Source: Blasia pusilla
Lineage: Eukaryota
Direction of reading: 5' to 3'
Assembly (NCBI GenBank): GCA_050084515.1
Contig: CM114271.1
Coordinates: 48,360,001 to 48,424,000, forward strand
DNA length: 64,000 bases
Made by a program: the position numbers and the translations under genes. Numbering within the stretch: position 1 is the stretch's first letter; each line of letters opens with the position of its first letter. The notes under the pieces were generated by a model. The model was not told the origin of the DNA, made no database searches, and saw nothing but the letters and a program-made list of their open reading frames with translations. Shown here one piece after another: positions 1-36,599 of the stretch.

Positions 1-230
1 CCCATAGTTTTTTTTTCCTCTTCCACATTTGGGCAACCCCTCTGAGTCTGATGAGTTGCAAATTGCACAAAATTTATAAAATTGAAAAAATCAATGGAAT
101 CATAAGTGTGGAACCAATCACTTTTTCCATCCAAGATCTGGGAAAAATCTATCATTTGCCCTGGGCTAAATAGAGTTGAAGCTCAAAGTGAAGGTTTTGG
201 AGAATGAATCTAAAACCTCATTTTGCATCC

Positions 231-1330
231 TTATAGTGGTTTGTTTAGAATACTTCGCACTTCTTTGAGGGACAGAATTGGTTGGTGGATTCCTACTCCT
301 ACCTCCGACTCTCTTAAAACTACAAGCAACACATAATACATGTGCTTATAAGGGAAATACCTTTTGCCACTTGTCTCTCTTTGGATAAAGTCATCATATG
401 AACATGTGGGAAAGCAACAGATGTGCACCACATACACCCGTGTGACACTTGAATTTACAGTGTTGTTCCTCACCCAATAATTCCTTCCTATTCCATTGCC
501 ACTATGGACATCTTTTGTGGCGATGATCTCCATTTTTGCCTCTTGAGCTGATGCAATTCGCTTTGCTCTCTCCACCGTTGGCCTACACATTCTGTTTCTC
601 TTCACCCCATCTCTAGACTCAAACAGAAATAATGGATTGAGATCATCCACCTTCTCCAGGTACATGTTGACATCAATCTTGGGTTGAATACGAAATGCAA
701 AGGTCTCTGTAATGCAAACATGCTCCGAACTTCCTCCGTCTACGAGTCTGAAACCGGCACTTCTAAGATTGTCCACTTCGTCTTAAGTGCAATTCGTACC
801 TGCGACAATGGGCCAAATCGTGGGGGTATTCCCCGGAGCTCCAATGGCAGCCGGATAAGAGTTCCAAAAAGCGCAAGATTCATTTGGGTAGAAGAAGTAC
901 TTTAATTGATCCCCGGTCCTCGTGAAATGATCAAAGGTTTTTCCCCAAAACCCAGGCAGTGGTCGTCCAGTCCTTGTACAGTTCATATTTAGGAAAGTGC
1001 CTCATGCTCTCCTAATGCCATCAGATCCTGCTCTGCAAGTGGGTCCACGTCCAGGGTTGCTCCGAGATATATGCCATCGTTTCAGGTTGCAATCCACCTC
1101 CATGACCGGAATCCCATATTGTTGAACCACCCCAGCCACCGGATGTTGCGAACTTCTAGCAACGGAGGGCTTGTGAAATAAAACATTCACTGATTTTGGA
1201 GAAGTTACTCCATGAGGGATTTGGGAGCAATCCAATTTGCATTGGGACACGGAAACAAAAAAAGGAACTGGGTGCTTCGCAACCCACGTTCCCAAATTCT
1301 GCAACCCATCGGACTCCAACACGTTGCAAC
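231..1330 (-). pseudogene. SWIM zinc-finger-containing fragment, probably the C-terminal half of a MULE-like transposase
   Basis: Consecutive - strand ORFs 1002-1322, 783-986 and 231-776 are separated by stops. The last contains YVVHICCFPTCSYDDF...PYKHMYYVL, a CxC-x(n)-CxH SWIM pattern with two Cys>Tyr changes. Confidence 0.6.
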
Positions 1331-1799
1331 AAAATTGAATCCATCATGTCAAATAGTCTCACCTACCAAACTTCATCTTGTCACTCAAATTCCGTCAGGA
1401 GAATCTGAGTCCCTATTCACTATAAATTGAACATTCTCATTCTCATTCTCATATCCATTCCCATTCTTATTCTCAGTCTCCTCCCAGTGAATCTTCTGGG
1501 AATGGATAATTATGTGAAGCTCACTTGTGGCAGTCATCTAGCGGCCCTTCCTCAATCAGAAATCGTTCGACCATAAGCTCGTGAGTCTTTCATACTAGTG
1601 GATGAAATTTTTCTCTCAGTTCGATTTCTTCTCCAAATTGGAACCATCTTTGTGTCGAAGGATGTTAGAGTGGACGGCACAAAGGACATAATAGGTGAGA
1701 TAATCCAGCTGGTGATTGCAGACCATAAAGTATGGAATCTCCTACCTCTAGCAAATGGTCAATACAGAGTTTACGGCTTGCCTCTGAATTCCTCAGTTT

Positions 1800-4652
1800 C
1801 CCAAGTAGACGGTAGAGAATTTCCTAGTGCACCGAGCTCTACGTTTGCAACTCCTAGCTCAGTAGATCCGGCATCGACTCCAACTTCATATGTTCGTTAC
1901 AATGTTGAACTTCCTGAAGAAATTCTTGATGTTTTCAACCTTAGTGGATCACTCAGACACCAATCGGGCCCTTTGTCCGCCTACTCGTTCCTCTTGCGAA
2001 TATCAGGCAATAGTTTGCTATCGTCTCTGGCCTTGAGAATGTTCAAGCACATTCTTGTTGACGAGCTGCCGCCCACGTACGATGGTAATTGCATTTTTGA
2101 GTTGCCTCCACTTGCTGCTCCTGCTCAAAAGAAAGATGGAGGACGCTTGAAGGGTATGGACAGAAAGTCTGATTGTCATCGATGGTGTAGGCTTCAACGG
2201 ACTAGTGCTTCAATTCCAGATGGTCCTTGGATTGTCTTCCGCCGCCAATGCGTTGGAGCCTTGGAGTGTAGAATTCCAGCATGCCCGTATCTAGAGCACA
2301 ATGGGCGGGTCAATACGTCACAATTCCCTCCCAAGAATGCAGAAACTCCATATGAGGCCGGTGCCACCATACCGCTGGGAGGCCATCGATGTCCTCATTG
2401 TCAGGCATCCCCTTTCTGCGTTGGAGCGTGTCCTGCATACATATTTTTCATTGTCCACAACTTGGGTTCCACCTCAGAGTACACAAGGTTGGCAGTTCAT
2501 GTTGGCTCCCACACTTATCCTGTGACCGATGCAATTCAGAGACACATCAAGGAGGATGTGGCGAAGAAAGTGGTCGAGGTCTTCATAAACTCTCCGAGTT
2601 CAAAGCCCGGAGTGATCAAGTTAACAACACCATCACAAATTTAGGAAAAATTGCTTGGAATCCTTGGACGGGGCGAGATGACGGTTGCTGAGGAGAAACA
2701 ACTCTGGGAAAATCTCGCATTTCTTGCTGATCTTGAATGCTTCCAAAATTTGATGCTTCCAAAATTTGATGGGTCAAATACGGATACTGGATGGAAAAAC
2801 GGCCAAAATGGATGCCATTGCCAGAATCAAGTCCAACTCTAGATTTCCATTCATTCAAAGATGGCAGTTCATGGGCCAGGGAGGCGAAGGATCCACGGCC
2901 TATGTCTTCAAAATGTCAACGACAGGTCCATCGAGTGGCCTCAATCTTATAGATCAAATGAGGGAAGGGGAAGATCTTTACGGCAGTTGGATAAGCGTTG
3001 ATATTTGCTATAGAGTGCTGAACGGATGGTTGACAATGGGTGGTCACGTTTATGACCATGTGGAGAAGGGACTCAAAACTATATTTTTCTGTGAAGTAAA
3101 AGCAGAAGACGTCGGCAGTTTGAAGATTTGTTGGTTACTCTTATTGGAGGTGGTGAAGGAAAACAAAAGGCCACCTCCGGAAATTTATGGGTTCATGGCA
3201 GACAATGCACAACCGGTTCATGGCGGACAATGCACAACCTGGGTGGATTGCTATCAGGGAAGTGTTTTGGGATGGGAAGGTTCAACCGGAGAGAGAAAGG
3301 TCGGATGCTTTCCATTGGCAACAGTCTCTAACCCGGTACACCAAATCTTGCATCAAGGAGAATTAGAGGACGGAGCATGTCACTCTACTCCAATGCTGTA
3401 AGGACAGCAAAACCTTGAAACATGCCATGGAATGCCAAGAACAAATTCATCGGTGGTGGAGGAAACATGCGATTGAGGGGAAGTACAAAGAGTTATGCTC
3501 TTGGTTGAGTTGGTGGACTGTACAAATGAGACAATGGGGAAACTTCATGCAGGAGGTGGGTTCACTAATTTGTCTCGTTGAAAATTGTTTGAAGAGTTGT
3601 AGCTAAAGGTGAGAAGTGTGGGCACTATAGGGATTTCAAACCGAAGAAACCAAGCAACTTCTCGGATACGACAGATTGCCTCCCTGAGTGTTCAACCCGT
3701 CGCTTACCGACGGGTTGCCTGAGTGTGCAACCAGTCGGAAACCGACGGGTTGCAAGTCGCACGGTCAAATTTACTTGCAATCCGTCGGAATTGGACGGGT
3801 TGGTTGAGAGTGAAACCAGTCGGAAAAGGACGGGTTGAGGGGTTGCCTGAGTGTGCAACCACTCAGAAAAGGACGGGTTGCAAGTCGCATGGCCAAATTT
3901 ACTTGCAACCCGTCGAAATCCGACGGGTTACAATAGGTGGTTCGTGGGCGTTGCAACACGTCAGGAACCGACAGGTCGCAGGGTCGTTCATGGGATGCCT
4001 TGGCCTTGTAACCCGTCTGGTTCCGACATGTAGCTTATTTCTTTGTCACACATCCCCTTTTTGTTCCCTTCTCACATTGGGGTCGTTGCAGGGATTGAAC
4101 ATTCATGAAAATGCCTTCTGCCCCAACACAAGTGGAGCAGAAAGTGTTCATTCTTCTTGGAGGTCATCACAAGCATGCCAAAGAATTTCACTTGTGGAGG
4201 CATGCCAACAAGAACAGGCAAGAGTAATGCTGCAGTCTGCAGCATCCCATATCTTCCTCACAAAAGGCATAACAAAAGGAAGGGGGCCTTCGATCTACGA
4301 GCTCTATATCAGGGCGGTTGTGAGATCAAGTGATGAGAAACTCTATATGGAAGCCTTCAACCGGTGCGTAGCAGGAATTCCCCTCGAGCAAGACGTACAC
4401 ATTGGTAGGGATATTTTTGGGTGCGTGTCAAGACCTCCCATACAGATGGTGGTAGAGCAGTCCGAGCAAGACTCGTGGAGACTAGATAAGTATCTTGACT
4501 TCAAGCATGTGAAGAGGCAGCATCAAGGAATGAACCCGGTGATTTATTTGGATGAGGAAATTACGCCGCCCAGGTATTCGGAAGTCTTCAGGATGCACGA
4601 AATTGGGGATGTCGTCCCTACCTGCGGCCACTGCATCATAGACCGGGCGTAG
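1800..4652 (+). mobile_element. MULE/Mutator-like DDE transposase pseudogene with one intron
   Basis: Cys/His-rich N-terminus (CVGALEC..CPY, CPHC..CPA..HVGSH). DDE core ISVDICY...GFMADNA...DAFHW...NTSGAESVHSSW. Phase-0 GT..AG intron 3556-4091 joins ...NFMQE to GLNIHEN... Frameshifts near 2640, 2760 and 3220. Confidence 0.7.
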
Positions 4653-5159
4653 ATTTTTCTCGGAGGAGCAAGCCCTCGAGACAGTGGAGTTGGTGTCCAA
4701 GGTCGTCACCGCCAAGGAAAAATCTACAGCGGGTCTCAAAGCCAAGGCGAGGGGATCGAAGAATTCCAAGGCCGAGTCTTCCCAAAAATAGGCTGAGAAT
4801 TCAAGGCGAGAGGTGGAATCATCTGGGTGAGCGGGGAGAGAGGGTCGGACCAGGTCCTCCACCAAAAAAACTCCACCAGAGTCAGAGGTAATAGAGACCC
4901 CAACAAGCCGATCGCAGACTCGGGAGAAGCGGAAGCAAGAGTCGCAGGTTTGTCCCAGGGAGCATACCAAGATGTGGAATACACTCCATCATCCGTGGGA
5001 AGACATAGAGAAACAACGACCCAGACAAGCGTCATCATTCAGTGCACGAATCTTCTGGATGAGCTGCAAAGTTTCAGTTCCCAAGCGTCGACACCCACCA
5101 TCGACAAATTGACAACGCTGGGACGAAAGCTTCAACAAAATGGGCTCGCTCCCTGGATG

Positions 5160-6524
5160 GTCCATGGGGAGGTCGAGGAGGTGGCGGTGGATCTCCTCGT
5201 CGCTGATTTACCCTCGGGGTTGCGCTTGTGGGACGAGAATCGGTCTAACGATGTCCCAGACTGGAATGTCCCTCTTTCTTATGACCAGATCGCGCTCCTG
5301 TTTTCCTTTGCAGAAAATTATCTCAGTGACAAGGGTTGTTTCTTAGTCTTGACAGGAGGGATCAAGGATGAGCTCTTCAACTTGCAATTCATCAAGAGGT
5401 CGCTGAAGTGGAGGACGGCGCAATCGTGGGTCATCAAGAACGAGTACCCACTCTGATCAGCGACGAGTCAAATCCGGGTAAGGCCTCTAAATCCATATCC
5501 AAATTGTCTTGCTCCGACGGGTTGCATCTCTGCATGCAACCCGTCGGATTGTCTGAGCTAGAGACTTTGGTGGTGCAATCCGTCTGAAAGCGACGGGTTG
5601 CAAATTTATCGCAAGTCTCCATTGGGTGAATGAAACCCGTCGAAACTCAACGGGTTGCAAGTGCTTATGCTTTTCCTTGTGTTTCTGGATGATGCAACCG
5701 GTCTGAAAGCGATGGGTTGCTCTTAGCCAACCATAGGCTGTTCTAAGCCAGCAAACTGTCGCCTTCCGACGGGTTGCTTATGGCAAAAAAAATCACTAAT
5801 ACTTGTAAAACAACCCGTCGGACTCCGACAGGTTGCTCCAATGTTAGGACTATAACTAAGTTCTTTGGGGTTAAGCGAAGTTCTTTGGGGACGAGTTGCA
5901 CATTGTGTCACCATACTCATGGTAGACCTTTCTTGTTGTTGGATACTGAAATTAGCTCTTTCTTGTTGCTGACATTGTTTCCAACCTGCTTCTTTACAGA
6001 TGGACCACTCCTTTGTCTACTGTTTTGTAAGGCCCGAGCACAACTTCCAAGTGTTTCAGATCCTCGATCCAGTGGATCCATGCTCCGATGGGTACACCTT
6101 AGATAGTTTATACAATTCCCCCCCGGGAATTTACATGCAAAATGGTACCCCCTTACTTGGAGGAAGGAAAAAGTCGCCAGTGCTGATGCAAACGCTCATC
6201 AAGCTCTGCTCAAGGCCGGGTGACTTGGTGTTCGACTTAGTGGGCCTTTCAGGGGTGAGTATAAGAGGCGCCTGGCATAGTGGCAGGAACATTCTCTGCC
6301 TTGAGGGAAGGCAGGAATTGTTTGACCTTTGCAAAGAGGCAAAGGGAGATTACGACAGGCTAGATGGGGTGTACAACTCTCCTCCGAAGCCGAGAGCTCC
6401 GGTTCCAAACCCACCATTGGTATTGACACCATCGTCACTTCCCACGATTCCGAAAATCGGGAGGGCAAGGCCGATAGTGATTCTCGAAGAGGTCTCGGAC
6501 GATGACAATTTTTTTGAACGATGA
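5160..6524 (+). pseudogene. Beta-class N4-cytosine/N6-adenine DNA methyltransferase-like domain (N6_N4_Mtase), two exons
   Basis: VDLLVADLPSG resembles motif IV (DPPY-like). It precedes KKSPVLMQTLIKLCSRPGDLVFDLVGLSG...GRNILCLE, resembling motifs X/I/II (KP..L..LI..S.PGD.V.D.FxGxG..GR...E). Phase-0 intron 5478-5999 keeps the frame. One in-frame TGA at 5454-5456. Confidence 0.7.
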
Positions 6525-7530
6525 TGGTGTTTGTAAAAGTTTGTCTTGTCGATTGTGATCGTCTACGTACTCCAATAGTTCATATTGCAACCCGTCGGAT
6601 TGCCACGGGTTGCAACTTTTGACTTTTTGACCACTGCATCTTTTTAACCACTTCCAAGCAACCTGTCAGATTCCGACAGGTTGGCTATGTGAGTGATCGG
6701 ACTCTTTCCCTATTAGTCCAACTTTATAGGCATTCCGGCGGGCTTCTTCACTTTGGCACCTTCCCCTAGTTCCGTCAAACAAGTCTTAGGCTTCCTCTCT
6801 TCTCTAAGACGTGTTGGATTCCTGCTACTTGTCGGGTTGCCATGATGGTGTCCCCAAGGACGGAGCACATATTGATAGCGGATGGGTGTTACCTTGCAGA
6901 GCGTACAAGATTTATTGCTGAGGAAGGCGGTGGGACTCAAATCATGTTACATGGGACCGTTATGGTGTACCTAGGGGGTGCCAAGGCTCTCGAATTCGCC
7001 AAAAATTTCAATCCCTGTCTACAATCGGCCAGAGGAGGCACTTGTATCCCAGGACATTCCTTTTGTACACGAACGTAGGAGAGTTAGGAGTAAATTTGTA
7101 GATGACGAGACTGAAGAAATCATAGACTAGATCAAATGTACATTTTCGAGCTTCCTTCGGATGTAATAAGGACAAGATTTTTTCAAATGATAATGATGTT
7201 TGTAAAAGTTTGTTGAATATTTTTTTTGGACTTGTCGATTGTGTTCATCTAGCTACTCAGAATATTTATTTTGCAACCCGTCGGATTCCAACGGGTTGCA
7301 ACTTCTCACTTTTTCACCACTGCAACTTTTTAACCATTTCCAGGCCAAGATGTCGGATTCCGACAGGTTGGCTGCTTGAGTGATCGGACTCTTTCCCTAT
7401 AAGACCAACTTCTGAGGTATTGTGGCGGGCTTCTTCACTATTGGCTCGTTCCCCTAGTATCGTCAAACCAATCGTAGGCTTCTCTTCTTCTCTAAGACGT
7501 GCTGGATTCCTACTACTATCAGATTGCCAT
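6520..7530 (+). repeat. Diverged ~330 bp direct duplication (6520-6845 vs 7190-7530)
   Basis: Shared blocks tgtaaaagtttgt, ttgcaacccgtcggatt, gagtgatcggactctttccctat and ttctctaagacgtg occur in the same order in both copies. Confidence 0.85.
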
Positions 7531-8599
7531 TTCGGATCCCAACCAGTTGGATTTTCGTGGGTGTAGGGTGGAATGGAATCACTTCTCAAAATCTTTCCTT
7601 TGTTATGGTGAGCTTGCTTGCAAGGGTGCAAGCCATCTGTTTTCGATGGGTTGCAAGAGTTGCAACCTATAAAATTCCGACAGATTGGGAGGGGTGCAGT
7701 TTCTCGGTTTCTCAGATTTAGGATCTGAATGAAGGGACATCAGTTCCTCTTTACTCCAGACAGCTAACAATCTTTTGGTTCAATTATCGTCTCATGTGTT
7801 CACATTTCACAAATTTGGTCTTGAGCTGATACCATGCATTATGGGGCAATTCAAAGGAGGCCATGATGTAGGCAAAAATCCTTGAAAAAGGAGTGGTTGG
7901 CATCGTACCCGATGCGCATTCGGGTGAGGTCTCATGATACATTAACACTTCAGAGACACTTGGGAATGGGGGAAGCTTAAAATTCTCATTTTGGTACTAT
8001 GTTCCCAATGGTTTTCCATAATGTATAATGAGTATTGATGCCTTCTACAAGAAGAGTCAACAATCATTTACAGGCATTTTCTTGTGCCTTTCTTTTGCAA
8101 GAAGAGATGTCAATCCATAATGTCAACCAAATATTCCGAGAAGTTAAACCTTGAAAAGCACCACAGTCTGTTGAGACCATCGTTAGAGTCTTTATTTGAA
8201 CCTTTCATTGAGATGAGATTGCTACTTCTCGTCAAATTATTTGCCAATGGTCCTCCAACAAAAATACCCCTTGGCACAACTTATTGTAGACTGAGACAGG
8301 CAATGTGAAGAAACTTAGGCTCATATGGAGAGTGATGGACAAATGTTTGTAGTGGTCTTATGATGTCTACTTGTTTTTTTCCCCCTGGAAAAAGAGGTTT
8401 CTTTAGGCCCGAATGTGGACCACTACATACTCTCTTCTAAAGATTTCATGAATTTGAAAGCAAACAAAAATTTCAAATATGTCAAAAAATTTTGAAGAGA
8501 GGAGGCAGATTTGGCCCTTTTTTTGAAGAGAGACTCTCCTCTCTTCCTTTTTCCTGCCAGAATACCAGCCCCCGCAAATAGCGCACTCTCTTGCAGAGT

Positions 8600-9188
8600 A
8601 GACGAGCTACCGTTGCCTACCGGCGCATCTCTTCACTGATCAATAGAGGAACTAACTCTTGAAAGGTTGGATACTTCTCTCTCACAAAGATAGAGGTCTC
8701 AAAGGACTTGTAATCCTTTGGAAGGCCTTGAAGAGTTAATAAAATCAGATTATCATCTTCTATTGTTATTCCCATGCTATTCAACTGATCAACAATATGT
8801 CTGATACTCAAAATATAATCATTGATGCTCTGCGATCCTTTCCTCACTTCGTTCAATAGCTATTTCAATTGAAGCTTTCCGGCCTTTGTAGATGTGTGGA
8901 ACAACATTTCCAATGCATCCTAGGCCTCCTTCGGAATATCAACATCTTGAATATAACCTATCATTGGCAAAGTGATCGTTATTGAAATGTAGTGGATTAC
9001 TTGCCTTGTGCGTTTGTTCCAAGCGCGAACATTCAAGTCTATTGAGTCACCTTCTGGCTTGGCCTCATTACCTTTGACAAGCTCCCATAGTTTTTGACCC
9101 ATGAGAAATTGTTTCATGGAAAAATCCAGACATTGTGGTTCTGCTTATCTAGCTTGTCGCTTGTGATTGCTATTGAGGAATACTCCAT
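8600..9188 (-). mobile_element. Ty1/Copia gag fragment (UBN2-type)
   Basis: DKLDKQNHNVWIFSMKQFLMGQKLWELVKG...SINDYILSIRHIVDQLNSMG...LQGLPKDYKSF...LISEEMR, with in-frame stops. Confidence 0.8.
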
Positions 9189-11459
9189 GATGAACGATTT
9201 CACTCACAAAAACGTGATTTCAGGCTTTCTATTGGTCCAATTGAAGCATAGACCACTCCTACACAGAAATCGACGTGAAATTTGCCAAAATTGATCAACT
9301 CTATGAAAGAACTAGTCGAAACTGGCCTGTAGAGAGCAAACTGCACAACTTTTCTTCACTAATTGCACTTTCCTACACTGAAATTGCTACTCCAGAAGCT
9401 CAGAGTGTCAAAATTGAGCGATTTTGGGTGCATTGGAAAGCTCTCAACAAACTCTGCAAGACGGCTAAAACCAGACTTTGATGTCATTGTAGCCATTGCA
9501 GACCCAGATGCCTAAATCGATCGGGAAAGCCTTCAAAATTGCCTCCAAAGTTTTATCACCGTCAAAGCTCCAGATGAAATCTACACCCACTGAGCTCTGA
9601 ATAAAAATTCCTTCTCCCAAACTGAAATTTTGCCTTCTTAACCCTAACGTTAACCATAATCTCAAGTTAGACTAATTGTGATAAACTAACCATAGTTAAG
9701 ATAATCTTGCTTAATTGACTAACCAAGATTAAGCTTCCCTACTTTGTGTGAGTACCAAATGTACCAGTTCAGGTGTCTCATGAGTTTGATTGTAACTCAA
9801 TCTTCAATACGGATCGAGGGCGAGAGAGGGCATCAGAGCGAGAAGCCGGTCCGGATGGGCCTAGAGATTGTGCATCAGGTGGTCTCATTGGGGGATGAGG
9901 AGCTAGAGTTGTCTGACAGGATGATGAAGCTGCCCATGGAGGAGGTAGAGTCCCACCACCTAGATGCATCAAGGAAGACGCCAAGCGCTAGGATGGCTGC
10001 TCACATGCAGCAGTTATAGGAGCAGATTTTGACTATGACATTGAGGTTACCCGATGCCGGATCTGTGGCATCGACATCATATGGAGCAGCCAGAGATATG
10101 GAGGATCTTGGTTGGATATGCGGGGTTGCCCCAATGGAGGCCGCCATAGTTTTGACGTGTGGAGCAGCCGTAGAGTTGGATCCACAACGAGAGGAAGCCA
10201 AAAAATAGACCAGACTTCCTGAGTCTTTCACGTTGTGGGAGGCGATGAGGATCCCATCGATGGGTCCTGATCAGAGTTCTCAAAGAGTTGGTGATATTAT
10301 TGGTGTGCAAGTACAAAGGATAATGGGAGAAACAAGTGCGATGACTTCTATTGCTGATGCTCGGGAGGAGCATATGTCGAGTACGATGTTGGGGGCGGCC
10401 ACGATGGTGTACCGTGCTCCGCTATTTTTTTCTTTTGATTTTATGACATTGGAAGGCACACCCGCCGAGGTGTTTCGGCTGGCTGTTACGCTATGTGAGC
10501 TTGGAGTTGGAGATCTTGCATCACGTTTAGAGGTGATTGCAGAGGAGGTGATGGACTTGCCCTTGGAGCGGATGCTCGGGCCGTCCACGTCAGATTCATG
10601 GCACGTTGCGGCTACTAGGATGGGAGAGATGCTTGCTAGACCCACGATAGAGCGTGCCATGGCTTCTCCTGGTGTTGTGTTGCTGGATAACCGGGGAGAG
10701 GTCTTCTAGTTGGTGAATCCTAGAGGTAGAGCCTTTAGTCTGCAGCGCGTCTTGTTGGATTCAGGAGCGCAACCCCTGATGTTGGGGAAAGCGTCATTCG
10801 AGGATTGGCCTTAACGAGAGCCGATGTGGAGCGTTGTCCATTTTAGATACAAACATCCTTGGGTGGAGCGAGTACCACACAGTATATCATCCGAGAGGAA
10901 GGCATGGTGAGGATTTTCCCCGGATATCCTACAGATGAGTCCGTGGTGCGAGCCAAGGCAATAGTGACTGATGCAGAGTCCTACGACGTCTTGGTTGGTG
11001 GAGTAGTGTAACAACTGATGGGGTTTTCCCTGAATAACTAGGAGGAGTGAGCGTCCTACAGACGAGGATGGCAGTGAGGTGATGGGTGCCTTAGCTCGTT
11101 ACCCGTTCGATTCACAAGTGCAGTGATCGAGTGACGCCCAGGGGAGATGGTGACATTTAGCAGTGCCATCACTTGGCCTAGTGATTTGATTGAGGGACAT
11201 GTCCATGTAGAGGATACTCTCGTTCCTGACATTTCTATGGAGAGGAGTGTTATGGTATCTGCATCAATCCGTGGGGGAGAGGTGCCGCTTTGGGGCTCGA
11301 CTGAGGAGCTTCGACGCTTAGCCACTGAGCATGTGCAGACCGCATGGAGCAAGACGTTTGCACCAGAGTGTGACGGGTCAAAGGAACCCCAGGTAGGAAG
11401 GAGTGTTTCTATGACCTCTTTGGACACCATCTTGATTGTGTGATGCATCCCAGAGGAGG

Positions 11460-12380
11460 GTATTTGGGTGTTGGATCTCTTTGGAGGGATCAGCAGTAGG
11501 TTAGCTGCTGTTTTGCACGAACAAAAATACATGTATGTGGAGATTGATGATGTTGCGAGGCGCGATTAACTTCATAATATGGCGCAATTACGCCTCCGTT
11601 TTCCGAGTTTTTGTCTACGTTCGCCATTTAGGGTTACCAGAGTTCCCTACCGAGGGACATTTCATTGTTGGGGGCGTAGGAATTGGAGCGCGTAAAGACC
11701 ATAGACTTGGTCATTGCTCGTTGGCCATGTTAGGGCTAGTCGAGTGCTGGATGGGGTAGCGGATTAGCTGATTCTCGGTCCAGGTTATTTTGGGAGATGA
11801 TGTAGATCTTGCGAAACTTGCAGGAGCATCAATCTCGTCCTCCGACATATATTTTGGAGAATGTACCGATTTTGGGCGATTGGAGGTCCTGTGTAGTGAG
11901 AAGTGCACATCAAGTGCATGCATGGATCGGCCTGGTAGCTTTTTTGGATGCCGCGAGTGTGGGTTCACGAGCACATTACCTGCGTCTTTGGTGGACCAAT
12001 TTGGTACCACACGAGGTGTTGCGGAGGGCATATGCGAGAGTGGAGCGTCCCTCCGATTTGTTGATGGATTCTATATTGGATCCGGGCCGTCGATCACAGG
12101 CAGTGAGGCTAGATAATTGACCATCGTTAACTATGGTCAACAGGATTGGCATGCCACGGGCAGCCTTTCCCACATTGGTGAGTTTTCCTGCTTCCTATGC
12201 ATTCAAGGAGGCCGGACTTGGCTTGGTTTGGGATGACCAGGTACAAAGGTTGGTGGAGGCCAACGCCAATAAGCGAGCGTGAGTGATGGGATTTCCCACA
12301 GGAGTGACGGCAGTAGGGTCACTATCAGAGGCATCACGACGTCATGTCTTGGGTCAGGCGATGGACTTGAACTGCTTAAC
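11460..12380 (+). pseudogene. C5-cytosine DNA methyltransferase domain inside the pol of copy A
   Basis: Motifs in canonical order: VLDLFGGIS (I), LVIARWPC*G (IV), YILENVP (VI), LRLWWTN (VIII), MGFP (IX), VLGQAMDL (X). Disrupted by stops and frameshifts. Confidence 0.85.
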
Positions 12381-12504
12381 ATGGATTTTCAGCTTAGGAG
12401 TAGCTGAGCTACGTTGTTTCAGGATGCGACAGATCACAACAGTTGCGTTGGTGAACCCCATGCCTACCAAGACGGTTGAGGCGGTGGCTGGGGCTGAGAC
12501 CCGA

Positions 12505-13516
12505 TGAGATTGAGTTTCGCAACCCTCATGACCAAACGAGTCCCAAAGCGGAACATCGGAACACTAGCGGGCTCACGCTAAGATGGTTTGCGCGTTGGAG
12601 TGGTCTCGGAGAAGAGACAAGAGACGAGACGCAAGTGAGGCTTCGCGTTTCATATTTTGTGGTCGCGACTGAAAAACCTGGACCAAACGCGGATCAAGAC
12701 TTGAGAGGAGTCAAGTCTAGGAAGTGGATTGCCAAAGGAAGGAATCCGGATTTGGGACGCCACTAGCGTTTGAGAGTTTCCGATTGTATTTGTGACCATA
12801 ACTTTTAGTGCCATGATGCGCTTGGGACGACTAAGAATGCGTTGGAAAGCTTATGGAAAGTCTGTTCAGGTGCACTAAAGATCTCTGCAAATGCATGCGT
12901 AGCGGCTGAGAAACAACCCGAAAATGACTATAAGTAGAGTCGGATTGAGGGCCACAATGAAGGGCCCGACCATCCTTTTCCAAAGGTGGGGGGTTAGTGG
13001 AGATCCCCAGAAGTACTATTAAGGGGGAAGGTCTCCAAGGGTGCTTGGGACTTGAACGCCACTTTGGGCGCCACGGGGCGGCTCAAGGGCATGGAACGGA
13101 TTGGGAGTTTGGAGTTGGGTTTGGAAACCTGAACCAAGTCTATTGAGGTGAATTTTAGAGATCCCTCTTGGATTCCAACCCGTGACTCAATTACTTAGGT
13201 CTCGGTTAGGAACTCGCGCGAGGTTTGTTGAACAGTTGGGACCTCTAAGCATGCAAGTGTTGTTTTAGGTTTCTGGACTAACCAGAAAGTATGTTCCAAG
13301 TCTTGAAGGATTTGCCATGTTGGGAACTTAGGAATGAGGGAAGGTTGAGCTTGATGAGATGCTGAGTTGAGGACTCGGTGGGTTGGAAGGCCGCTTGACC
13401 CAAAGCAAGACTAATGTGAGTGCGTTTGGGTGTAGGTTGGCGATGAGAGCGTGTCCTACTAAACGTACGCTTCCGCAACACTAAGATTGACGTTCAAGGA
13501 GAGTAGGCGCATGACA
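12505..13516. mobile_element. ~1 kb insertion interrupting copy A between DNMT and RT (possible solo LTR)
   Basis: Absent from the homologous site in copy C (41440-41480). Begins TGAGAT and ends ATGACA. No clean TSD visible. Confidence 0.5.
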
Positions 13517-16500
13517 TCGACACACCAAGGGTGATCAGGAGCGAAACCCTTGGACTTCTTGGGATGTTTTGCATGTACGCCAGGAGATGGTAGCCACAGC
13601 ATCGAGCGTGGTTCAGGAAATTACACATGGAGATCCAATTTTGTAGTTGGCTGGAAGGGAGCAGTCGAGTTTTGTTGTCCGAGACGGGGTTGCACCATAG
13701 CAACCACCGACACCCACGTCGGAGAGTTCTACCCTAGTCACAATGGAGACTTGGGAACCAGATATGGGCCCTAAGTTGACAAGAGGAGAGCGGCACGGCA
13801 TATACTAGTTCCTTAGGAGTTATAGGAGCTGTTTTTCATTTAGTATGCATGATTTGGGTACACTGAAAGGTCCAGGGATCCGCATTGAGTTGTCGAGTAA
13901 CACTCTGATCTTGCGAAGACCCTACAAGTATAATGACATGGAGAAGGATCTTATTTAGAGTAGGAGCCAAGACTTGGTTGGAGCAGGACTAGTGGAGATG
14001 TTGCATGGAGAGTATGCATGTGCCACTATCATGCCCGCCAAGAAGGATGTGCATGGCAACTAGACGGATAGGCGGATGTGTGGAGATTACCGACCTATCA
14101 ATCGACAGAAAAATTCCGATAGGTATGCCATGCCCACTCTTGAGGAGATCTTTGATGCTATTGAGCATGCAAAGGTCTTCAATTTGTTAGATCTTTGAGG
14201 CGGATACCATCAACTGCCTATCAAATTGGAGAACAGGCAGAAGACGACATTTTAGGGCATCGATCCTCACGGGAAGGATTGCTTGTACTAGTGGCGGTTC
14301 TTACCATTTGGGTTAAAGAATACCTTGGCTGAGTTTCAGAGGGTCATGTGTAGGATCTTGGTAGGTCTAGATTTTTCTAGGTGTTATATTGATGACATCG
14401 TAGTGTTTAGCGCCACGATTGAGGAGCATGAGCGACATTTAGAGGAGGTGTTTCGACGATTGCAATTACATGGGCTAAAGCTATATCTAGGCAAGTGCAA
14501 GTTCTTCTATGACCAGATTGAGTACCTGGGTCATACGATATACCTATTGGTTCTTGGTGTGCAGCAGACAAAGGTAGAGGCTATTTCACACATTCCACGC
14601 CCTAGAGATATGAGTCGAGTTTGTGCATTCATGGGATTGGCGAACTTCTATTGACGGTACGTCAAGGGTTTTACTTCGATGGCAAAGCCGCTAACCTTGC
14701 TGACCAAGGTGGATCAGGAGTGGCACTTGGGGGATGAGCAAGAGAGAGCATTTCAGCTGCTTAAGGATAGATTGACGTCCGCGTCCATATTGAGGAGACC
14801 GATTAAGGGGCGTCCTTTCCAGTTGCATACAGTTTGGAGCATGTTGGGGCTTGGATTTGTGCTCAACCAGCATGACGATGATGGTAGAGAGTTTGTGGTG
14901 GCTTACGCTAGTCGCTCAAACAATGCTGCAGAGGCAAAGTATAGCTTGTATGAGGGTAAGTGCTTGGCTGTAGTGTGGACTGTCGCACATTTCAGATGTT
15001 ATCTATTCAGAAATCCCTTTACCATCATTACTGATCATCAGCCATTAAGTGGTTGATGCAGTCCGATAAGCTTATAGTGTAGCTTGCAAGGTGGGCTCTT
15101 TTATTGCAGGTCATAGACCTGGGAGGCTCAACCAAGATGTAGATGGTTTGAGCCGTAACCCATGCCCGAGTTAGCAAGATGCGATTGGAGCTCGTTGACA
15201 TGGTGAGAGTGATGAGGAGTTGGTGCCAAGATGGCATGCGTCAGCCTATTTGGGTTTGTTGGTTATCAAGAGCCAGATTACAGAGACTTCGATGGCGAGG
15301 TCTGATGGAGAGTCCTTAGATCCAGAGGCTGGTGAGGAGACGACAGGTGGCCGAGACATTCACGACGATGGAGTGGTCTTGGAGTACCTACGTACTGGCA
15401 GCGTCGCGAGCACAGTGGGTGCTAGAGAGCGGGATCGATCCTACAGCGAGCCATACAGTTCTGGTGGGAGGGGACACATGTGTTGTAGGTGTGGGAGGAT
15501 GGTAGAGTGCGTGTAGTGCCTCATCCTTTGTAGAAAGCACGTTTGGTGCATTATGCCCATAAGGAGTTGGGTTATTTTGGAGTGAAGCGGACGTACAACT
15601 TGCTCCAGATTCAATATTGGTGGCGAGGCATGTAGAATAACGTTTAGCAGTTTGTAGCGAGATGCATGGTGTGTGATTGAGTCCGAGCATCGTTCAATGC
15701 TCCGACTCCATAGTTGCATCCACTTTCGATCATGGGTTTAGGTTATAGATGGAGTTTGGATTTTGCAGGACCTGTACCTTTGACAAAGCGCCATAGTTGT
15801 TTTGTGTTGGTGATGGTTGAGCATTTCTCCAAGTGGATAGAGTTGGTTGCATTGCCTGACAAAGCAAGTGAGGGAGTAGCGTATGCCTTCCTGGATCGGG
15901 TGTGGAGTCATTACGGCGCATCAACTGAGGTATTGACAAACCACAGTACAGAGTTCCGCGGGGAGTTTTAGGCCTTGTGTGATCAGGCACTGATCGACCA
16001 CTACACTACTTTGCGAGATCATTGAGAGGCGGATGGACTAGCGGAGCGGGTTGTGCAGACGGTGAAGAGAAAACTACGCAAGTATGGCTTGCAGAGAGGT
16101 CACCTAGGAGATTGGGACCTCCAGTTTCCGTGGTTGGCGATGGGATACAGATTCAGCAAGCAGGCATCCTTAGCGTCTTTCTCACCGTACTTGCTTTTCT
16201 ATGGTCGAGAGCCAGATTTACCTATGGCCATTCGTCAAGATGTTGGTAAGGTATTGAACCTTGATGACCTTGATGTATGGATGCGAGCATGTTCTCAGAG
16301 GGCTGAATTATTTCGGAGTGTGATGCCCATGGCGTTTAAGGACTTAGCGATTGTGTAGCATCGGCATACATTGAGGTACGCGACTATACGGGGAGGAGGT
16401 TATCGACCTACTATCTGGAGGTTTCATCAGGGAGACTATGTCTACTTGCAGCAAACGGCACCCACGATATTGGATGTGACTGCAGGGCGCACCATCTTGA

Positions 16501-16970
16501 GAGTGCCTGAGGTTTTGCCATCATCTGTTCTCTTATTGGAGGGATGCGATGGTATGGTTTGGAAGGACCATGTGCGTAATTGTGCACCGTGTCACCTTTC
16601 GAACATTGACAGTACAATTGATATGAGCTTAGAAGTAGTTCCTACAGGCTTGCGATGTAGGTTGTGTGGTTTTGCCCGCGGTGTAGCCACTATGCTAGTC
16701 TCTGATGGATGTTTGAGAGGATGGCATATGGCATGTTTGACACCATCTCTCACCTTAGGGACAATGGATGTGTCCCAGATATACATTGCGTAGGTAGTTC
16801 TACATTCTGACTTGTGTCTGTGATATGGATGATAAGAAGGCGACTAATGATGGGGCCACATGAGCACTCGACCTTCTTGCTCTTAGCGCCCGAGAGATGT
16901 ATATCATGGTAGGTAGGGATAGATGGCTATCTGGAGTTAGAGGGACCTAACCATCAGCTAGGAGGGCGAT

Positions 16971-17742
16971 TGGAGATATTTTGGTACTTCTTGTCTCGTT
17001 GTTTAGAAGCCATGAGTTAGCATGGGATCATGCGTGTTTGTGTGTGTGAGTTCGGTGATAGCAATGTATGTTGTGTAGCGATGTGTATGCGCACAACAAC
17101 TATCACGTCATTTAGGATAGATCGGTGAGATCTAGTAGAGCGCCTTCGCGAGCAGTGGAGGATAGGCTGTGGAGGTTGAGATGACTTGCTAAGGCCCTGG
17201 AAAACTTGAGAGAGCAGGTTTCCCCTTCGTTTCGGCTCATTTGGAGCCATATTGAGGAACTTACTATTTTAGGTAAATACCATTTTGAGTATATGGTATA
17301 ATTTCTATTTTTGGTAAGTGGTCTTTGACCTCCTACATCAGGTCAAGAGCCAAGGAGGTGACTTGGGAGCATAGGTTATCATGGAGAAAGCTTGGGAGAG
17401 GGAAGGGGTATACCTCAAGGAGAGAGAGGTTGAGAGCTCATTCTCTCTTTGTAAAACCTCTTTGCATGAGGCGACGGAGCTATAGTCTTGCTTGCCTTGT
17501 ATGTGTAACCCAAGCCTCTCATTAGGAGAGTGGGTTTGGTTTGACATTGAAAGAGATATGTGAGAGTGCACACATTTGAGAGATCTGGTGTTGAGAGAGA
17601 TTGGATCTTGATTTATTGAAGATATTTTGGTACTTATTGTCTCGTTGTTTGGATGTCATAAGTTAACATGGGATCGTGTGTGTTTGTGTGTGTGTTCGGT
17701 GACAACGATGAATGTTGTGTAGCGATGCGTATATGTATGACA
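16971..17742 (+). repeat. 3' terminus of copy A: A1 (16971-17098) - B (17099-17616) - A2 (17617-17742)
   Basis: Two ~127 bp TG..CA direct repeats (gatattttggtactt...gtagcgatg) flank a ~520 bp segment directly after the PPT. Confidence 0.85.
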
Positions 17743-17789
17743 AAGTAGACAAAGGAGCGGCTCTTGCTCCCGTAAGCACTAACGTGAAT

Positions 17790-18028
17790 AGGGAACACGT
17801 TCAAATACCACTTCCCAAAGTAGAAAGTCAACTCTACTCCTAATGATAACTTACCTGAAAGAGTTAGTTTCTCTATATACTTTCAAATGAGCCGAAACGA
17901 AAGGGAAATCTGTTCTCTCACGTTACCCGTGACGTGAGTAGGTCATTCACGATCTCTTGAAGTTGTCCTCTAATTTTGTCAAAGGCACCCTACTACAAAT
18001 TTATTGATCCATTTTAAAAGACTTGACA
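17790..18028 (-). repeat. Inverted, diverged copy of the B segment of a related element
   Basis: aaatgagccgaaacgaaagggaaatctgttctctca (17885-17920) is a near-exact reverse complement of 17208-17243. The copy starts TGTCA at 18028 on the - strand. Confidence 0.65.
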
Positions 18029-24947: not shown

Positions 24948-27818
24948 TCAGAAAGTAGGCAGTGGCGTATTGGCAATTTGAGAGGCTTCAGGAGGCGGAA
25001 AAGACGGAGTGCGAATCTTGTATGGAGGTTTGCTGATAGTGGAATGTCGTTGGTAGACACCGTCTTCTAAAATCTCAAGTTGGGAATCACCCTTGACACT
25101 TCGGGGGGTCTTGTATTGAGCAAGAGAGGTGCCTTGGCTGAAGGCGTAGTTCGCGAGCTTGTCGAACGTGCCTATTCGGAGAATCCGCAGTTGCAGAGGT
25201 CCTATGAAATCTCTACTCCGGTCCCTTTTATAGATCTCGCTGAGAGTGGCCTCCAGAATGGTGCAGCATTTCTCCAGCTCGTCATCAGGCAGACACTCCG
25301 GTTCCGAGTTGGAATCCGATGCCGACAGTTCCCAGAAGACCACATAGCATCCCGGCGTTTTCGAAAAATCTACAGTACTCGTGTACTCCAGGAGCCTCGA
25401 GCCCGTGCTCGCCTCAAGCGCGTTGGCAGCTTTGGTCACGCTCGTGTGCAGGTCCTTCTCGTCCGTTTTGTCTGTGTCCACCGAGAGGACAACCCTTTTT
25501 CGCTGCATGAACTGGAAGCATGGGGTCGCATTGTGGGATCCCACCACTTTCAGAACGTCCCCCATCCGATATCGATACAATCCTGTACACGAACGCAGCG
25601 CAGGTCAGCTCTACAAAATCTGGGAAATCCGTGATCCGCTCCAAACTCGGGAGGCAGAGCTTCAATTCAAGGAATTCTCTAGAATCATCCAAGTTATGCT
25701 GTAGAGCAGGATGCGCACAGAGAATGAATGAAGTGAGTTATTAGAGAGAGAAATGATTTAAGAGTATGGGACCCCCCGTAGCTGTTCGCGTTTGTTAGAA
25801 GTTCTCCATAAGCCTAGATTTTCTCCAAGTTCTCAGCCCGCGATCATCCTCAAATCAACCCAGTTCCGCTCACAGTGCGTGACCCCCTTGATGAGAGGAT
25901 TTGAAAAACTTCATGGAGAAAGAGCCAACATCGAAACAATGAACCAGTACATGGGTTGGAGGAAATCTGAAACGGAGCGAGAGAGAAAAGGAATATACCG
26001 GAGACAGTGGTGACGAGGAGCTCGTACTCTTGGCCCAGCTGGAGTCTCGAAAGGGTTAAGGCCTCGTCCTCCTTCGACTCTTCTGTTTGGTCCACCGGAA
26101 TGAACTCGTAAAACGCCACGGTCGGAAGCAGAGTGTAGGCAATTTTTTCTGGGGGACAGATTGGATTCAAGTTGAGCCCAAAGTAACCCTCCGTGGCCCC
26201 ATACAGCTGAGTGCAAATTACGCGCGTGTTGTCGCTGTAGTACGCGAGCATCGGCAAATACGCTTCCATCGAGCCTGTGCACACGGTGTCCAGCAGCTTC
26301 ATGTTCGGCCATAGCCTCTTCAGGATCCCTTCGCTCGTCTTCGAGCACTCGGCTTGGACGACCTCTGCGAGTTCGGGATCGGCCCGGAGCAGGGGCAGCA
26401 CGCTGGATCGCACCCACGGAGTCTGAACTTGCCTCTCGCTCAGCGTGCCGTTCCTAATGTCGTCGCATAACTCCCGCCACTGGACCTCAAGCTTGCGAAT
26501 TGCGCGCACCATCACGGCCGGGAAAATGGAGCCCATGCGCACCACCTCAGTGCGCTGCAGCAGTCCGCACAGCAGGTGACAGTACATAGCCTCCTCGGGA
26601 TCCCGAGCCTCAATGACCTCGTCGGGGCTCGTGAGCCTATACGTCGGATCGAAAGGCCTTTCCTTGAAATCCTTACTTCTAATGAAGCTGGTGACAGCCG
26701 TCTGCTGCACATGCCCGCTCGCTGTCACGATTGTTGGAGATACGAAGTAAAAGAAAAGAGCCTTCGACTTCTCCAGACCCGGAAACTGTCTGCATTTCAT
26801 CCCATCCCATCCCATCCGTCCATAGACTTCTTAGAACCATCAACGGAATTTCTACTCGGTCGTACATATTAAAAATTCGCCTGAGAAGACTGGAAGACTC
26901 CCTCAGTCATTACTAGCGATTCCTCGGGACTGTCAGCTCATTGGCACATTGTGGGAGACCTACATGTGCGGTATCCGTTGTTTTCTACGCCATAGCTCGG
27001 TCAGAAAGGAAGCTGCAACAAAGGTCGCAAGACAGAGGATTAAGAAAAATGCCAGACGGGGAGAAAACTTACCGGTTGAGAACTGGGCGCATGAGGCTCC
27101 ATATCAGTCCTCTCAACCTCAAATCCTGCTCCGTGATGGGAAATAGCTTGCATTCGCCATTAGTAGTGCCGGAACTGTCAGCACAACCCAAAACACGACG
27201 AAACTTTACGTCCGGAGAATCGCACAACAGTCCCATCTTCTCTCATGCATGCTCTCTACTAAGACTCCTCTTGCCAATAATCGATCTCATTCTCTTCACG
27301 AACTAAAGAGAGGGTAACTGGTGACAAACGCTCGCCAAGAGCAGAGAAGGGCATGGCGTGCACCTGGACATAATTTCTTCGATAGGATCTGCACACAGGA
27401 TAGGGGAAGTCTCTCCTTTCATGATGCGGAGAATGGCCGGGCGAATTTCGTCGTAGTCGCTTATGGGCACGCGCTCTCGAAACAAGTCGATATCCGTGGA
27501 GCCATTCAACCCGTACTGCTGCAAGTATTCTGTGTGTGCGTGTTTCTCCAGAATCCCCCGCAGCAATGCGTCCTGCTCGTACTGTGGGTTCTTAGTCACA
27601 TGTTCCAAATACTCATTAAACTTAGCTTCTCTGTCTCGCCATTCCTTGTATTCCGCGGGCTCATCGTCTTCCACAGTTCCTTCTGCCAGCTTCTTCCCCT
27701 CCTGAGAAAGAGAAAGATCTGCTCCACTTGTACTCTCCTCCAACTTCCCAACTCCTCCTTCCTTCTTGAATTTCTGCTCGTGGCACTTCGTGTTCATTTC
27801 CTGATCCATCACTGCCAT
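24948..27818 (-). CDS. GH3: GH3 family acyl-acid amido synthetase; exons 27818-27364, 27174-27073, 26789-25999, 25582-24948 (660 aa)
   Basis: GT-AG junctions give one open frame of 1983 nt. Motifs SSGTTNGECKLFP, LYGATEG, GLYRYRMGD and QYKTPR are present, as is the 102-bp second exon typical of GH3 genes. The start ATG is my best guess. Confidence 0.95.
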
Positions 27819-32518: not shown

Positions 32519-32589
32519 TTACATCACTTTGTCTCTTGACTATTTTCTTGCTAAAAACCACCATCTTTCTCCAAAGCCCAACATGTCCA

Positions 32590-33160: not shown

Positions 33161-33638
33161 ACTCTAAGTCTGAAAACCTAGAAATGAGAGGAACTTCTTC
33201 AAAAGAAGAGGATCCCTTCTCGTTACAAAACTTCATTGAGTGAGGGTTATTCATGCATTTTTGTTTCTTCCTAGGTATTGTGCATGCTGAATATAAAACA
33301 AACAACATGAAATAGTTATTGAGATGAATATTTTATCCAATAGATTAATAAGCATATATGGAATATTAGCCATAAAACTCATGAATGTCCTTTACGTGCT
33401 ATACCAATCTACTATTCATTAAAAAATTTATGTATGTACTACAAACATGTTCCTTGGATGTCAAGATTCTAGGGGAGAAAGTCTTGGGATAGGCTTGACT
33501 TGGGGGAGTGGAGCTGTGAGGATTCAGATGCGCTTTGATTTCATCACATCGACATGACCTCTCAAAGTGGATTTTGGATGGAAATCTCACTTCTCTCAAA
33601 ATCAACACTCGGGGAGCCTCGCATCCCCCATAGTTGTC

Positions 33639-33800
<162 letters not shown>

Positions 33801-34199
33801 TTATAGTTTTAGAGAAGCTATGAAACTAAAAAATTCTTTTTTACAAACAACCAAGAAACTTGCGTCTACTGTAGAGCGTGAGCTAAAGGGGAATTCAATT
33901 AAGTGACACTGACTGAGAGGAGGCAACACCAAACCAAATGCTACGGAAAGATGGTCTGAGCTTGAAATTTAGTGGGAAGTCCTACACTTAATTGTTATCC
34001 TTTCTACTTGAGACTCATGTTCTTGTGGCATTGGAAGCTGAGGCCACAAAATGGGAATGAGATAGGAACTGCGAGAATCCTTGAAAGGTGAAAGCTTCCA
34101 CTAAGATGGCGGCCCTGATAACCATGAGCCTTGCTCTCCCAATATCTTCTCGGCAATTTCGGCCATTGAAAACATAACTTTGCATGTGAATCTCAGCAA

Positions 34200-34300
<101 letters not shown>

Positions 34301-35977: not shown

Positions 35978-35980
<3 letters not shown>

Positions 35981-36064
<84 letters not shown>
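35981..36064. repeat. (GA)n microsatellite
   Basis: Read directly from the sequence. Confidence 0.99.
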
Positions 36065-36068
<4 letters not shown>

Positions 36069-36599
36069 TGAATGAATAGATTTATTGTCCACGGGGACCC
36101 CACAGGGCCATGGGACTTAGTTTTGACACTTAACAACAAATTTGGAGAGAGAGCAAGCACCAGCGAGGGCCTAAGGGGTCTTCAGAGCCAGGTGAGTGTC
36201 CCTGGTCTTCACACAACTTTGCAAGAATTTTGCAATCTGAGTCTGATTCTGCCTAGTCATGAACAAGAGGACCCTGGGAGCTCGGTGAACAAAGAGATCC
36301 GGGAAGTCAAGCCTAATATGATCGTGAAAGGTGCAGTCGAAGAGGTAGTGATGTTCATCATCAACAAGCCCCGAGTTGCAAAATCTACATAACTCCCTCT
36401 TTTCTTCTGTGAGAATTTTCCTTTCTCAATCTTCAGGTCAGTAGAGCCACATCTGAATCTCGCTGGGGCCCCACACTTCAGATGCATAGAGTGTGGCTGG
36501 GATCACCAGAGCTTTGAAGAGATGGAGTTTCGTGGAATATGCCGAGTTCCATTCTTCTACAATTGGATTGTAGCAGTGTAGACCCTCAAGCCTGCATTG

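Follow-up and report, generated by a model that had tools for sequence, protein, structure and literature searches.

We analysed a window of 64,000 nucleotides (64 kb) of forward-strand DNA from Blasia pusilla (GenBank assembly GCA_050084515.1, contig CM114271.1, positions 48,360,001 to 48,424,000); positions below are counted from its first letter. One repeat family occupies about 33-7654 of the window. The copy found there carries a transposase-like gene that runs into a domain resembling DNA amino-methyltransferases, together with arrays of a palindrome, and this putative mobile element is our subject. The gene is divided into three exons, all on the plus strand. Exon 1 (1502..3555 by frame reading) belongs to the transposase-like gene and starts with an ATG at 1502. 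It is followed by intron 1 (3556..4091, 536 nt), exon 2 (4092..5477), intron 2 (5478..5999, 522 nt) and exon 3 (6000..6524). Both introns are GT..AG introns of phase 0, as had been noted in an earlier reading of the letters alone (the sequence-only reading). Exon 2 encodes the end of the transposase, a basic and Ser-rich linker and the N-terminal half of the methyltransferase-like domain, with all parts in one frame. The transposase-like end (4092-4649) and the first half of the domain (4797-5453) share this exon and this frame, and the sole Met of the frame upstream of the domain stands 10 residues before motif IV. The motif IV-like strand and loop (VDLLVADLPSGL, 5187-5222) leads into a motif V-VI-like helix and strand (5187..5351 in all, plus strand). 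Exon 3, whose frame runs from 6000 to a stop at 6522, encodes the C-terminal half of the domain, with a block of motifs X, I and II at 6141-6308 (more narrowly, 6195-6308), and an acidic tail. The order of a motif IV-like stretch before an X/I-like block is therefore as first described.

Upstream of the methyltransferase-like domain, the gene has the parts of a transposase. A Cys/His-rich region (2174..2521, plus strand) is presumed to be a zinc-finger DNA-binding domain; it matched neither a Pfam family nor a PDB sequence. In the ESM Atlas, its nearest cluster (0.95) has GCM in 12% of members and an ALS2CR8 cluster stands at 0.83. These neighbours are leads only, and presumably fit the WRKY-GCM1-type fingers of Mutator transposases. 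The candidate catalytic core (D, D, DxxH; 2988..3318, plus strand) has a first Asp in WISVDICY (2988-3011), a second Asp in GFMADNAQP (3189-3215), within a 25-bp duplication, and a DxxH motif in SDAFHW (3301-3318). A catalytic Glu motif (4125-4151) and a Cys-Gly-His-Cys (CGHC) near the transposase end (4617-4640) lie on the same strand in exon 2. With intron 1 removed, the spacing read by eye is D-67-D, with DxxH 26 residues further on and Glu 126 residues past the second Asp; the standard of comparison is the typical D-D-E/[C/D]xxH spacing of Mutator. The 215-residue core frame falls among Mutator-like element (MULE) and ZSWIM1-3 RNaseH-like clusters of the ESM Atlas (0.91; recognition 2533), and all of the 10 best family-bearing matches agree. 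A weak match to ISL3 transposases was found at 3367-3603 (E 0.0037), and a word-indexed homology search with the 355-residue transposase frame among longer proteins gave nothing. The transposase is probably a member of the Mutator superfamily (MULE-like), a plausible assignment that rests on language-model neighbours and on the D..D..DxxH..E spacing read by eye. Thus, the DDE-type transposase of the sequence-only reading lies where it had been located, on the same strand as the amino-methyltransferase-like domain and ahead of it, and the support for its identity is weaker, being given by ESM Atlas neighbours only.

This copy is a dead pseudogene. It has six in-frame stops (1574, 2642 and 3364 in exon 1; 4650, 4794 and 5454 in exon 2) and two frameshifting tandem duplications in exon 1, of 16 bp (2738-2753/2754-2769) and 25 bp (3190-3214/3215-3239), which account exactly for the two frame changes of that exon. 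It had been called disrupted, with non-canonical motifs IV and I, and it is: motif IV reads DLPS and motif I lacks its first Gly. We placed 76,161 public genomic reads of the same organism, from about 1% of a whole-genome sequencing run, on the first 10 kb at an identity of at least 80%. At the stop at 3364, A instead of T was found in 713 of 727 and in 729 of 737 reads (1442/1464 combined), indicating that this stop is private to the copy. The 25-bp duplication was kept in 569 of 1034 reads and absent in 465. This frameshifting duplication is therefore common to about half of the reads, which indicates that defective copies multiplied. Past 6506 this copy is rearranged, and 600 genomic reads continue differently there.

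Both introns are filled with the same palindrome, just as the sequence-only reading had seen. It is a CpG-rich palindrome of 27 nt, about GCAACCCGTCGG-3 nt-CCGACGGGTTGC, and within the 64 kb it is private to the element: a regular-expression search over the window found 20 full palindromes of 26-27 nt, all between 33 and 7654. The half-site CGACGGGTTGC, with at most one mismatch, gave 23 matches against 0.44 expected, and none of 100 shuffles reached 23. Eight half-sites lie in intron 1 (3556-4091), nine in intron 2 (5478-5999), five in the 3' flank (6525-7700) and one in the 5' flank (1-1501); exons 1, 2 and 3 have none, nor has the remainder of the window (7701-64000). Counted as palindromes, intron 1 has 9, together with a 128-nt higher-order repeat, and intron 2 has 5-6. 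The 3' region (6508..7530, plus strand) consists of two 80%-alike copies of a unit of about 340 bp (6508-6843 and 7177-7530) with palindromes in each. The outermost copies in the regular-expression list, neither of which has a strand, are a degenerate one on the left (33..59) and one on the right (7628..7654), just beyond which CpG content and genomic depth drop. Another (1301..1327, no strand) separates the transposase gene from a frame that diverges from it. Each of the four palindromes tested is predicted to form a stable DNA hairpin (-7.9 to -11.1 kcal/mol, z -3.5 to -5.7). Genomic reads show many skips and back-steps among the intron palindromes, so that array length varies between copies. 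Most likely, a protein of the element itself binds the palindrome as a cis element.

The family is present in many copies. Only 86 of the genomic reads were at least 99% alike, 71,823 were below 95% and most were at 80-95%. Depth was about 800-1600 over 1-7650 and similar across parts, with 1200-1600 in the coding parts and about 640, half of that of the exons, in the introns; at 7683-8350 it was about 340. If the 86 reads are taken as single-copy depth (about 1.3-fold), a depth of 1200-1600 would correspond, by this rough calibration, to a family of the order of a thousand diverged copies. The CpG observed/expected ratio was 0.46-0.97 over 501-7500, 0.43 in 7501-8000, 0.24 in 8001-8500 and 0.16 in 1-500. 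The transposase-like and methyltransferase-like parts are on the same strand, the two halves of exon 2 are in frame, the palindrome is confined to 33-7654, and depth and CpG content are similar; this argues that they belong to one element. A second copy of the element in the window, or homology of 1-1600 to the rest of it, was found neither by tblastx nor by sensitive blastn. A likeness by eye between 1196-1270 and 4581-4650 was dropped after these searches gave no match. In addition, 7818-8187 and 7620-7684 were skipped by 86 and 116 genomic reads, respectively, and are either insertions in this copy or deletions elsewhere, so that the family extends beyond 7700 in some form.

The methyltransferase-like domain has remote homologues. 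Among eight translated pieces, exon 3 alone matched Pfam, with N6_N4_Mtase (PF01555) at E 0.0021 and 18.5 bits, which is below the gathering score of that family (26.7 bits). The methyltransferase profile match foreseen by the sequence-only reading was thus obtained, but below threshold. Against PDB sequences, the best match of exon 3 was M.RsrI (E 0.006), and the half of the domain in exon 2 had nothing meaningful. A word-indexed homology search of exon 3 among longer proteins gave nothing. HMMER over 1.8 billion representatives returned five proteins at E 0.001, of which four are real; P0001, a low-complexity repeat of 1449 residues matched in 22 short stretches, was dropped as spurious. P0003 is a hypothetical protein of 758 residues from the moss Ceratodon purpureus, and it has two paralogues with 90-93% identity, the locus tags (M758_9G084500, M758_1G310400 and M758_6G158200) placing the three on three chromosomes. 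In tblastn, residues 435-522 of P0003 matched 5184-5453 in exon 2 (E 1e-6) and residues 585-646 matched 6141-6326 in exon 3 (E 5e-10). P0003 thus aligns in order to exon 2 and exon 3, indicating that the two exons encode one domain. Weak tblastn matches of the moss proteins at 31.5-31.9 kb, inside a Ty3/gypsy-type polyprotein, were rejected as noise. All four independent homologues also matched N6_N4_Mtase (E 7.6e-6 to 0.022, 15.2-26.5 bits), all below threshold, and exon 3 and the four homologues fall on the same region of the profile (159-220 of 221).

Profile and structure comparisons lead to the same enzyme class. With the family profile, 9 of 11 PDB sequence matches at E<=1 were beta-class DNA amino-methyltransferases, ranked as DpnA/M1.HpyAVI (1e-5), then TTHA0409, RsrI, CcrM, rotifer N4CMT and MboIIA. 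For further comparison, ten bacterial enzymes were picked from a metagenome scan by the family's own GRH[FY]FG[IM]E pattern; the scan gave 16 loci, whose translated frames read as ordinary prokaryotic amino-methyltransferases and none of which had a transposase-linked eukaryotic look. Against these ten, hhalign gave 96.5% probability and E 7e-10 over motifs X-I-II, and with relaxed settings a collinear alignment of 216 columns (96.8% probability), in which AD[AL]P[ES]GL lies under DPPY. The loop is placed likewise in a MAFFT alignment of 18 sequences, and in both alignments the permuted order of motif IV, variable region, motif X, I and II is kept. AlphaFold2 (AF2) gave no usable model of the moss homologue with eight eukaryotic rows only (predicted local distance difference test, pLDDT, 40). 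With bacterial rows added, pLDDT rose to 60.1 with a predicted template modelling score (pTM) of 0.67; the structure prediction called for by the sequence-only reading gave a beta-class fold for the model of the moss homologue, and only with bacterial rows in the alignment. The top Foldseek matches of this model were all beta-class (E 3e-11 to 1e-7). In the VIA ranking, ranks 1-11 were beta-class (Z 14.3-17.7), the MT-A70 family had Z 8-12 and all others were at 6.7 or less. From profile matches and the predicted fold, we take the domain to be a very diverged descendant of the prokaryotic beta-class (permuted) DNA amino-methyltransferases, by remote homology.

RNA evidence consists of three RNA-seq runs of raw reads. 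None of the RNA reads in the three runs was at least 99% alike to the locus; thus, this locus itself was not seen expressed, and its relatives are transcribed. In plus-strand orientation, RNA depth was 7-19 at 3341-3674 and 25-38 at 6013-6346. It was 0 to 0.5 in intron 1 (3675-4008), with 0 in plus-strand orientation, and about 1-2 over 5345-6012 on the side of intron 2. In some RNA reads, exon 1 is followed directly by a diverged start of intron 1, and splicing of intron 1 was not directly seen, with no RNA joint among the 15 joints listed and a further 260 outside that list. Fourteen reads in run X15 and 21 in run X17 match from about 5998 rightwards and have unrelated open-frame letters before it. 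These 35 reads indicate that the acceptor is used with a different or diverged upstream exon. On the minus strand, a degenerate open frame (231..1343, 370 codons), made of three pieces in one frame with two stops, diverges from the transposase gene. It matched no Pfam family, and RNA depth with the first mate on the plus strand was 4.7-14 at 335-1002 (runs X15/X16), an orientation that fits this frame; perhaps the element has a second gene here. Separately, in the block 6854-7169, which lies between the two 340-bp repeats, RNA of relatives reached 11-18-fold. Its left edge is sharp, with 77 reads of the three runs departing from the window sequence to the left of 6854, and many reads begin at 7169. 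This block resembles the final exon, with the 3' end, of a further transcribed unit nested there.

With moderate confidence, we read the element as a dead copy of an old and abundant cut-and-paste family of a land plant, probably Mutator, whose transposase gene continues in frame into a very diverged, non-catalytic domain derived from a beta-class methyltransferase, and which has its own palindrome arrays. The transposase gene would comprise a zinc-finger region, a D-D-E core, two introns and then, in the same frame, a C-terminal accessory domain, and in active copies the transposase and the domain would be fused. The accessory domain keeps the fold order and part of the cofactor half, and has lost the catalytic (D/S/N)PP(Y/F/W) loop. 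The palindrome, amplified as arrays only in non-coding parts, would be bound by one of the element's own proteins.

Several observations weigh against this reading. The transposase pieces, which are short because of the frameshifts, matched no Pfam family at E<=10, and the core had nothing meaningful among PDB sequences. According to the accessible text of a survey of MULE diversity, MULEs are defined by terminal inverted repeats (TIRs), or a documented non-TIR type, together with a target site duplication (TSD) of 8-11 bp (PMC6446971). No TIRs were found between 1-1600 and 6400-16000, where only the palindrome itself matches and the left end possibly lies outside the window, and no TSD was found around the element, whose ends are undefined. 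Of the MULE-like cut-and-paste transposon proposed by the sequence-only reading, the multi-copy family and the MULE-like neighbours stand, but no HMM match, TIR or TSD was found. The first 430 residues of the moss homologues have no similarity to the transposase. RNA joins exon 3 to an upstream exon absent from the window. Furthermore, many copies break at 4581, which lies between the transposase and the methyltransferase-like part and 70 nt before the stop at 4650. Where genomic depth is about 1200, 310 reads link 4581 to 1226 on the opposite strand, 387 have different, open-frame letters upstream of 4581 and 181 point to a local inversion, from 4581 towards 4661-4666. Possibly only a minority of copies have the arrangement seen in the window. 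The reads could mean that about one copy in four has the block 1226-4580, with the transposase gene, turned round relative to the domain; the two would then be one unit and not one transcript. As for the domain, hhalign and the second AF2 alignment are not independent of the family motif; since the bacterial rows were selected by that motif and fed to the model, the profile and structure tests show compatibility and are not independent proof, and it is the Pfam and PDB sequence matches that give independent support. DLPS might also be a private change, since this copy is a pseudogene.

These points bear first on an explanation that we consider unlikely: the methyltransferase-like exons would be a captured fragment of a host gene, as in Pack-MULEs, or a chance neighbour, and would have no role in the life of the element. 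It is the break at 4581 and the unrelated N-terminal 430 residues of the moss proteins, gene models in which no transposase part is detectable, that keep a captured or separate gene in consideration, and the joining of exon 3 to a different upstream exon in RNA fits it too, as does the difference in depth between 4677-5344 (830-970) and 2005-2338 (about 1600). However, the halves of exon 2 share a frame, in which the only start codon before the domain is the one close to motif IV. Copies of the private palindrome crowd both the intron that splits the domain and the 3' flank, and the domain itself is at several hundred-fold genomic depth. Moreover, the three moss paralogues, at their high identity and on three chromosomes, look like a mobile family. 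Linkage of the transposase and the domain is thus likely, and it falls short of proof because copies differ in structure at 4581. The single element of the sequence-only reading is borne out by the shared private palindrome, strand, frame and depth, but not by the structure of copies at that breakpoint.

A second alternative concerns the activity of the domain. The sequence-only reading had proposed that the element carries its own writer of N4-methylcytosine (4mC) or N6-methyladenine (6mA) and could be a vehicle or source of domesticated plant N4C methyltransferases. A working N4-cytosine or N6-adenine DNA methyltransferase, perhaps the source of plant genes of the DN4MT1 type, would fit the beta-class homology and fold and the transcription of relatives. 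It would also fit the cofactor half, in which a Gly and an Asp before motif I, an Arg and the Glu of motif II are nearly invariant over the 18 aligned rows. The second Gly of motif I (FxGxG) is kept in most of these rows, and its first Gly is replaced (L/S/N); HPTQKP of the beta-class enzymes is replaced by GSREK/GGRKK. The catalytic tetrad argues otherwise. In the MAFFT alignment it reads DLPS in the window and DAPE in the moss proteins P0003, P0006 and P0007, and DPPY/SPPY in all ten bacterial enzymes. The canonical (D/S/N)PP(Y/F/W) is absent, and with it the aromatic residue, in all four family sequences that cover the loop. The residue at the aromatic position differs between the window and the moss lineages, suggesting that it is not under old constraint. 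According to the accessible part of the report on rotifer N4CMT, changing SPPY to APPA abolishes 4mC formation by that enzyme (PMC8885841). Every family member is under the Pfam cut-off, and the family profile matches N4CMT (E 0.045) more weakly than the adenine enzymes (DpnA 1e-5). With DLPS/DAPE at the (D/S/N)PPY position, a working writer is quite improbable, and the profile has no special affinity to N4CMT that would mark the family as the origin of plant N4C enzymes; neither proposal is supported here. The domain is most likely, judged by these residues, a non-catalytic DNA-binding or S-adenosylmethionine (SAM)-binding module and not a 4mC/6mA writer.

If the domain is such a module, it could be a non-catalytic reader with a methyltransferase fold whose targets are the CpG-rich palindromes (CCGACGG/CCGTCGG cores) arrayed in the introns and flanks of the element itself; binding might involve base flipping or clamping, as in its enzyme ancestors. 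It might keep host CG methylation away from these sites or bring the transposase to them. The element would then have an anti-silencing or targeting system derived from a bacterial restriction-modification enzyme, and one of such age that mosses share it. The idea is modelled on VANC and its tandem-repeat targets, and we regard it as a long shot.

It is very unlikely that the family is not cut-and-paste at all and was amplified otherwise, for example within a larger element that carries it or through segmental or tandem duplication; it would agree with this that no TIR or TSD was found, that the whole first 10 kb is repeated and that defective copies with the 25-bp duplication multiplied (569/1034 reads), but there is a D-D-E-like core with MULE-like neighbours, defective copies can move in trans, and depth and CpG content drop near 7650-7700.

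The rest of the window gives its context. A GH3-family gene of the auxin-amido synthetase type lies at 24948-26830 on the minus strand, in two frames that match the N-terminal (E 5e-53), central (E 8e-13) and C-terminal (E 5e-29) Pfam domains and that are separated by a probable intron at about 25605-25849. Judging from this gene, the window is land-plant nuclear DNA. Decayed Ty3/gypsy-type frames are found at 30583-32523 and 54025-54873 on the minus strand and at 49811-50437 on the plus strand; Pfam recognises reverse transcriptase and RNase H in them, and a stretch resembling an integrase was seen by eye. At 33399-34296 and 35888-36181 there are long microsatellites of (GA)n/(CT)n and (GT)n. 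Blocks of strong GC skew at 10001-18000 and 52001-62000 (+0.22 to +0.24; -0.23 to -0.27) are possibly the coding strands of large retroelements.

In motif order, predicted fold and conserved Asp, Arg and Glu, the domain is like the beta-class enzymes (M.RsrI, DpnA/M1.HpyAVI, CcrM, M.PvuII and N4CMT). It differs from them in its D[AL]P[ES], its sub-threshold Pfam score, its intron-split gene and its setting in a eukaryotic repeat. With DN4MT1a/b of Marchantia and N4CMT of bdelloid rotifers it shares being a eukaryotic gene of beta-class ancestry, and the moss homologues add a bryophyte connection. By our own reading, DN4MT1 and N4CMT are low-copy host genes. The element family is multi-copy, far more diverged and without SPPY. 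As far as the accessible parts of the published reports go, DN4MT1 and N4CMT cluster with bacterial N4C enzymes (bioRxiv 10.1101/2021.02.12.428880; PMC8885841), and N4CMT keeps SPPY (PMC8885841), a motif that has no occurrence in the accessible text on DN4MT1. An inactive domain would be a new case of an enzyme fold put to use as a sensor of DNA or of a cofactor; should the domain be active in spite of its odd loop, amino-methylation would have reached eukaryotes by a third route.

How parasites cope with the epigenetic defence of their hosts can be seen in mobile elements that modify DNA or counteract silencing. Known elements with DNA-modifying functions include retrotransposons with DNMT domains and fungal KDZ elements with TET/JBP. 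DIRS and DAM-LTR retrotransposons, in the accessible part of a recent report, carry prokaryotic-like adenine methyltransferase (DAM) domains with the catalytic pocket preserved (bioRxiv 10.64898/2026.05.21.726589). So far as that part shows, they are like the present family in being mobile elements with a prokaryote-derived DNA amino-methyltransferase domain, whereas here the element is probably a DNA transposon, the domain is beta-class and the pocket appears lost. In VANDAL elements, as described in the accessible text of one study, the accessory anti-silencing protein VANC binds motifs that are specific to the family and are repeated in tandem in its non-coding parts (PMC5735166). On that description, VANDAL/VANC is the closest functional analogy, sharing the Mutator type, which is probable here, an accessory protein and a family-specific motif amplified in non-coding regions; the motif of the present element differs in being a CpG-rich palindrome, and its binding is presumed. 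KI-MULEs with a ULP1 protease and Pack-MULEs are cut-and-paste elements with acquired non-transposase domains. Mariner elements of giant viruses carry separate methyltransferase open reading frames (ORFs), according to the accessible part of their description (PMC3627910). These MULEs and Mariner elements resemble the present family in having taken up an extra domain or ORF and differ in the type of domain. The word methyltransferase has no occurrence in the accessible text of the survey of MULE diversity (PMC6446971). A full-text literature search for PF01555 or N6_N4_Mtase with transposon or plant found no cut-and-paste element with a beta-class-derived domain, and none in plants, although supplementary tables may hold cases. 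The family defines an unannotated protein domain that is shared with moss hypothetical proteins and is paired with a private palindrome array. In comparison with these systems, a cut-and-paste element with an acquired accessory domain is of a known kind, and what makes this one notable is mainly the unannotated methyltransferase-derived domain with its possible link to the palindrome arrays.

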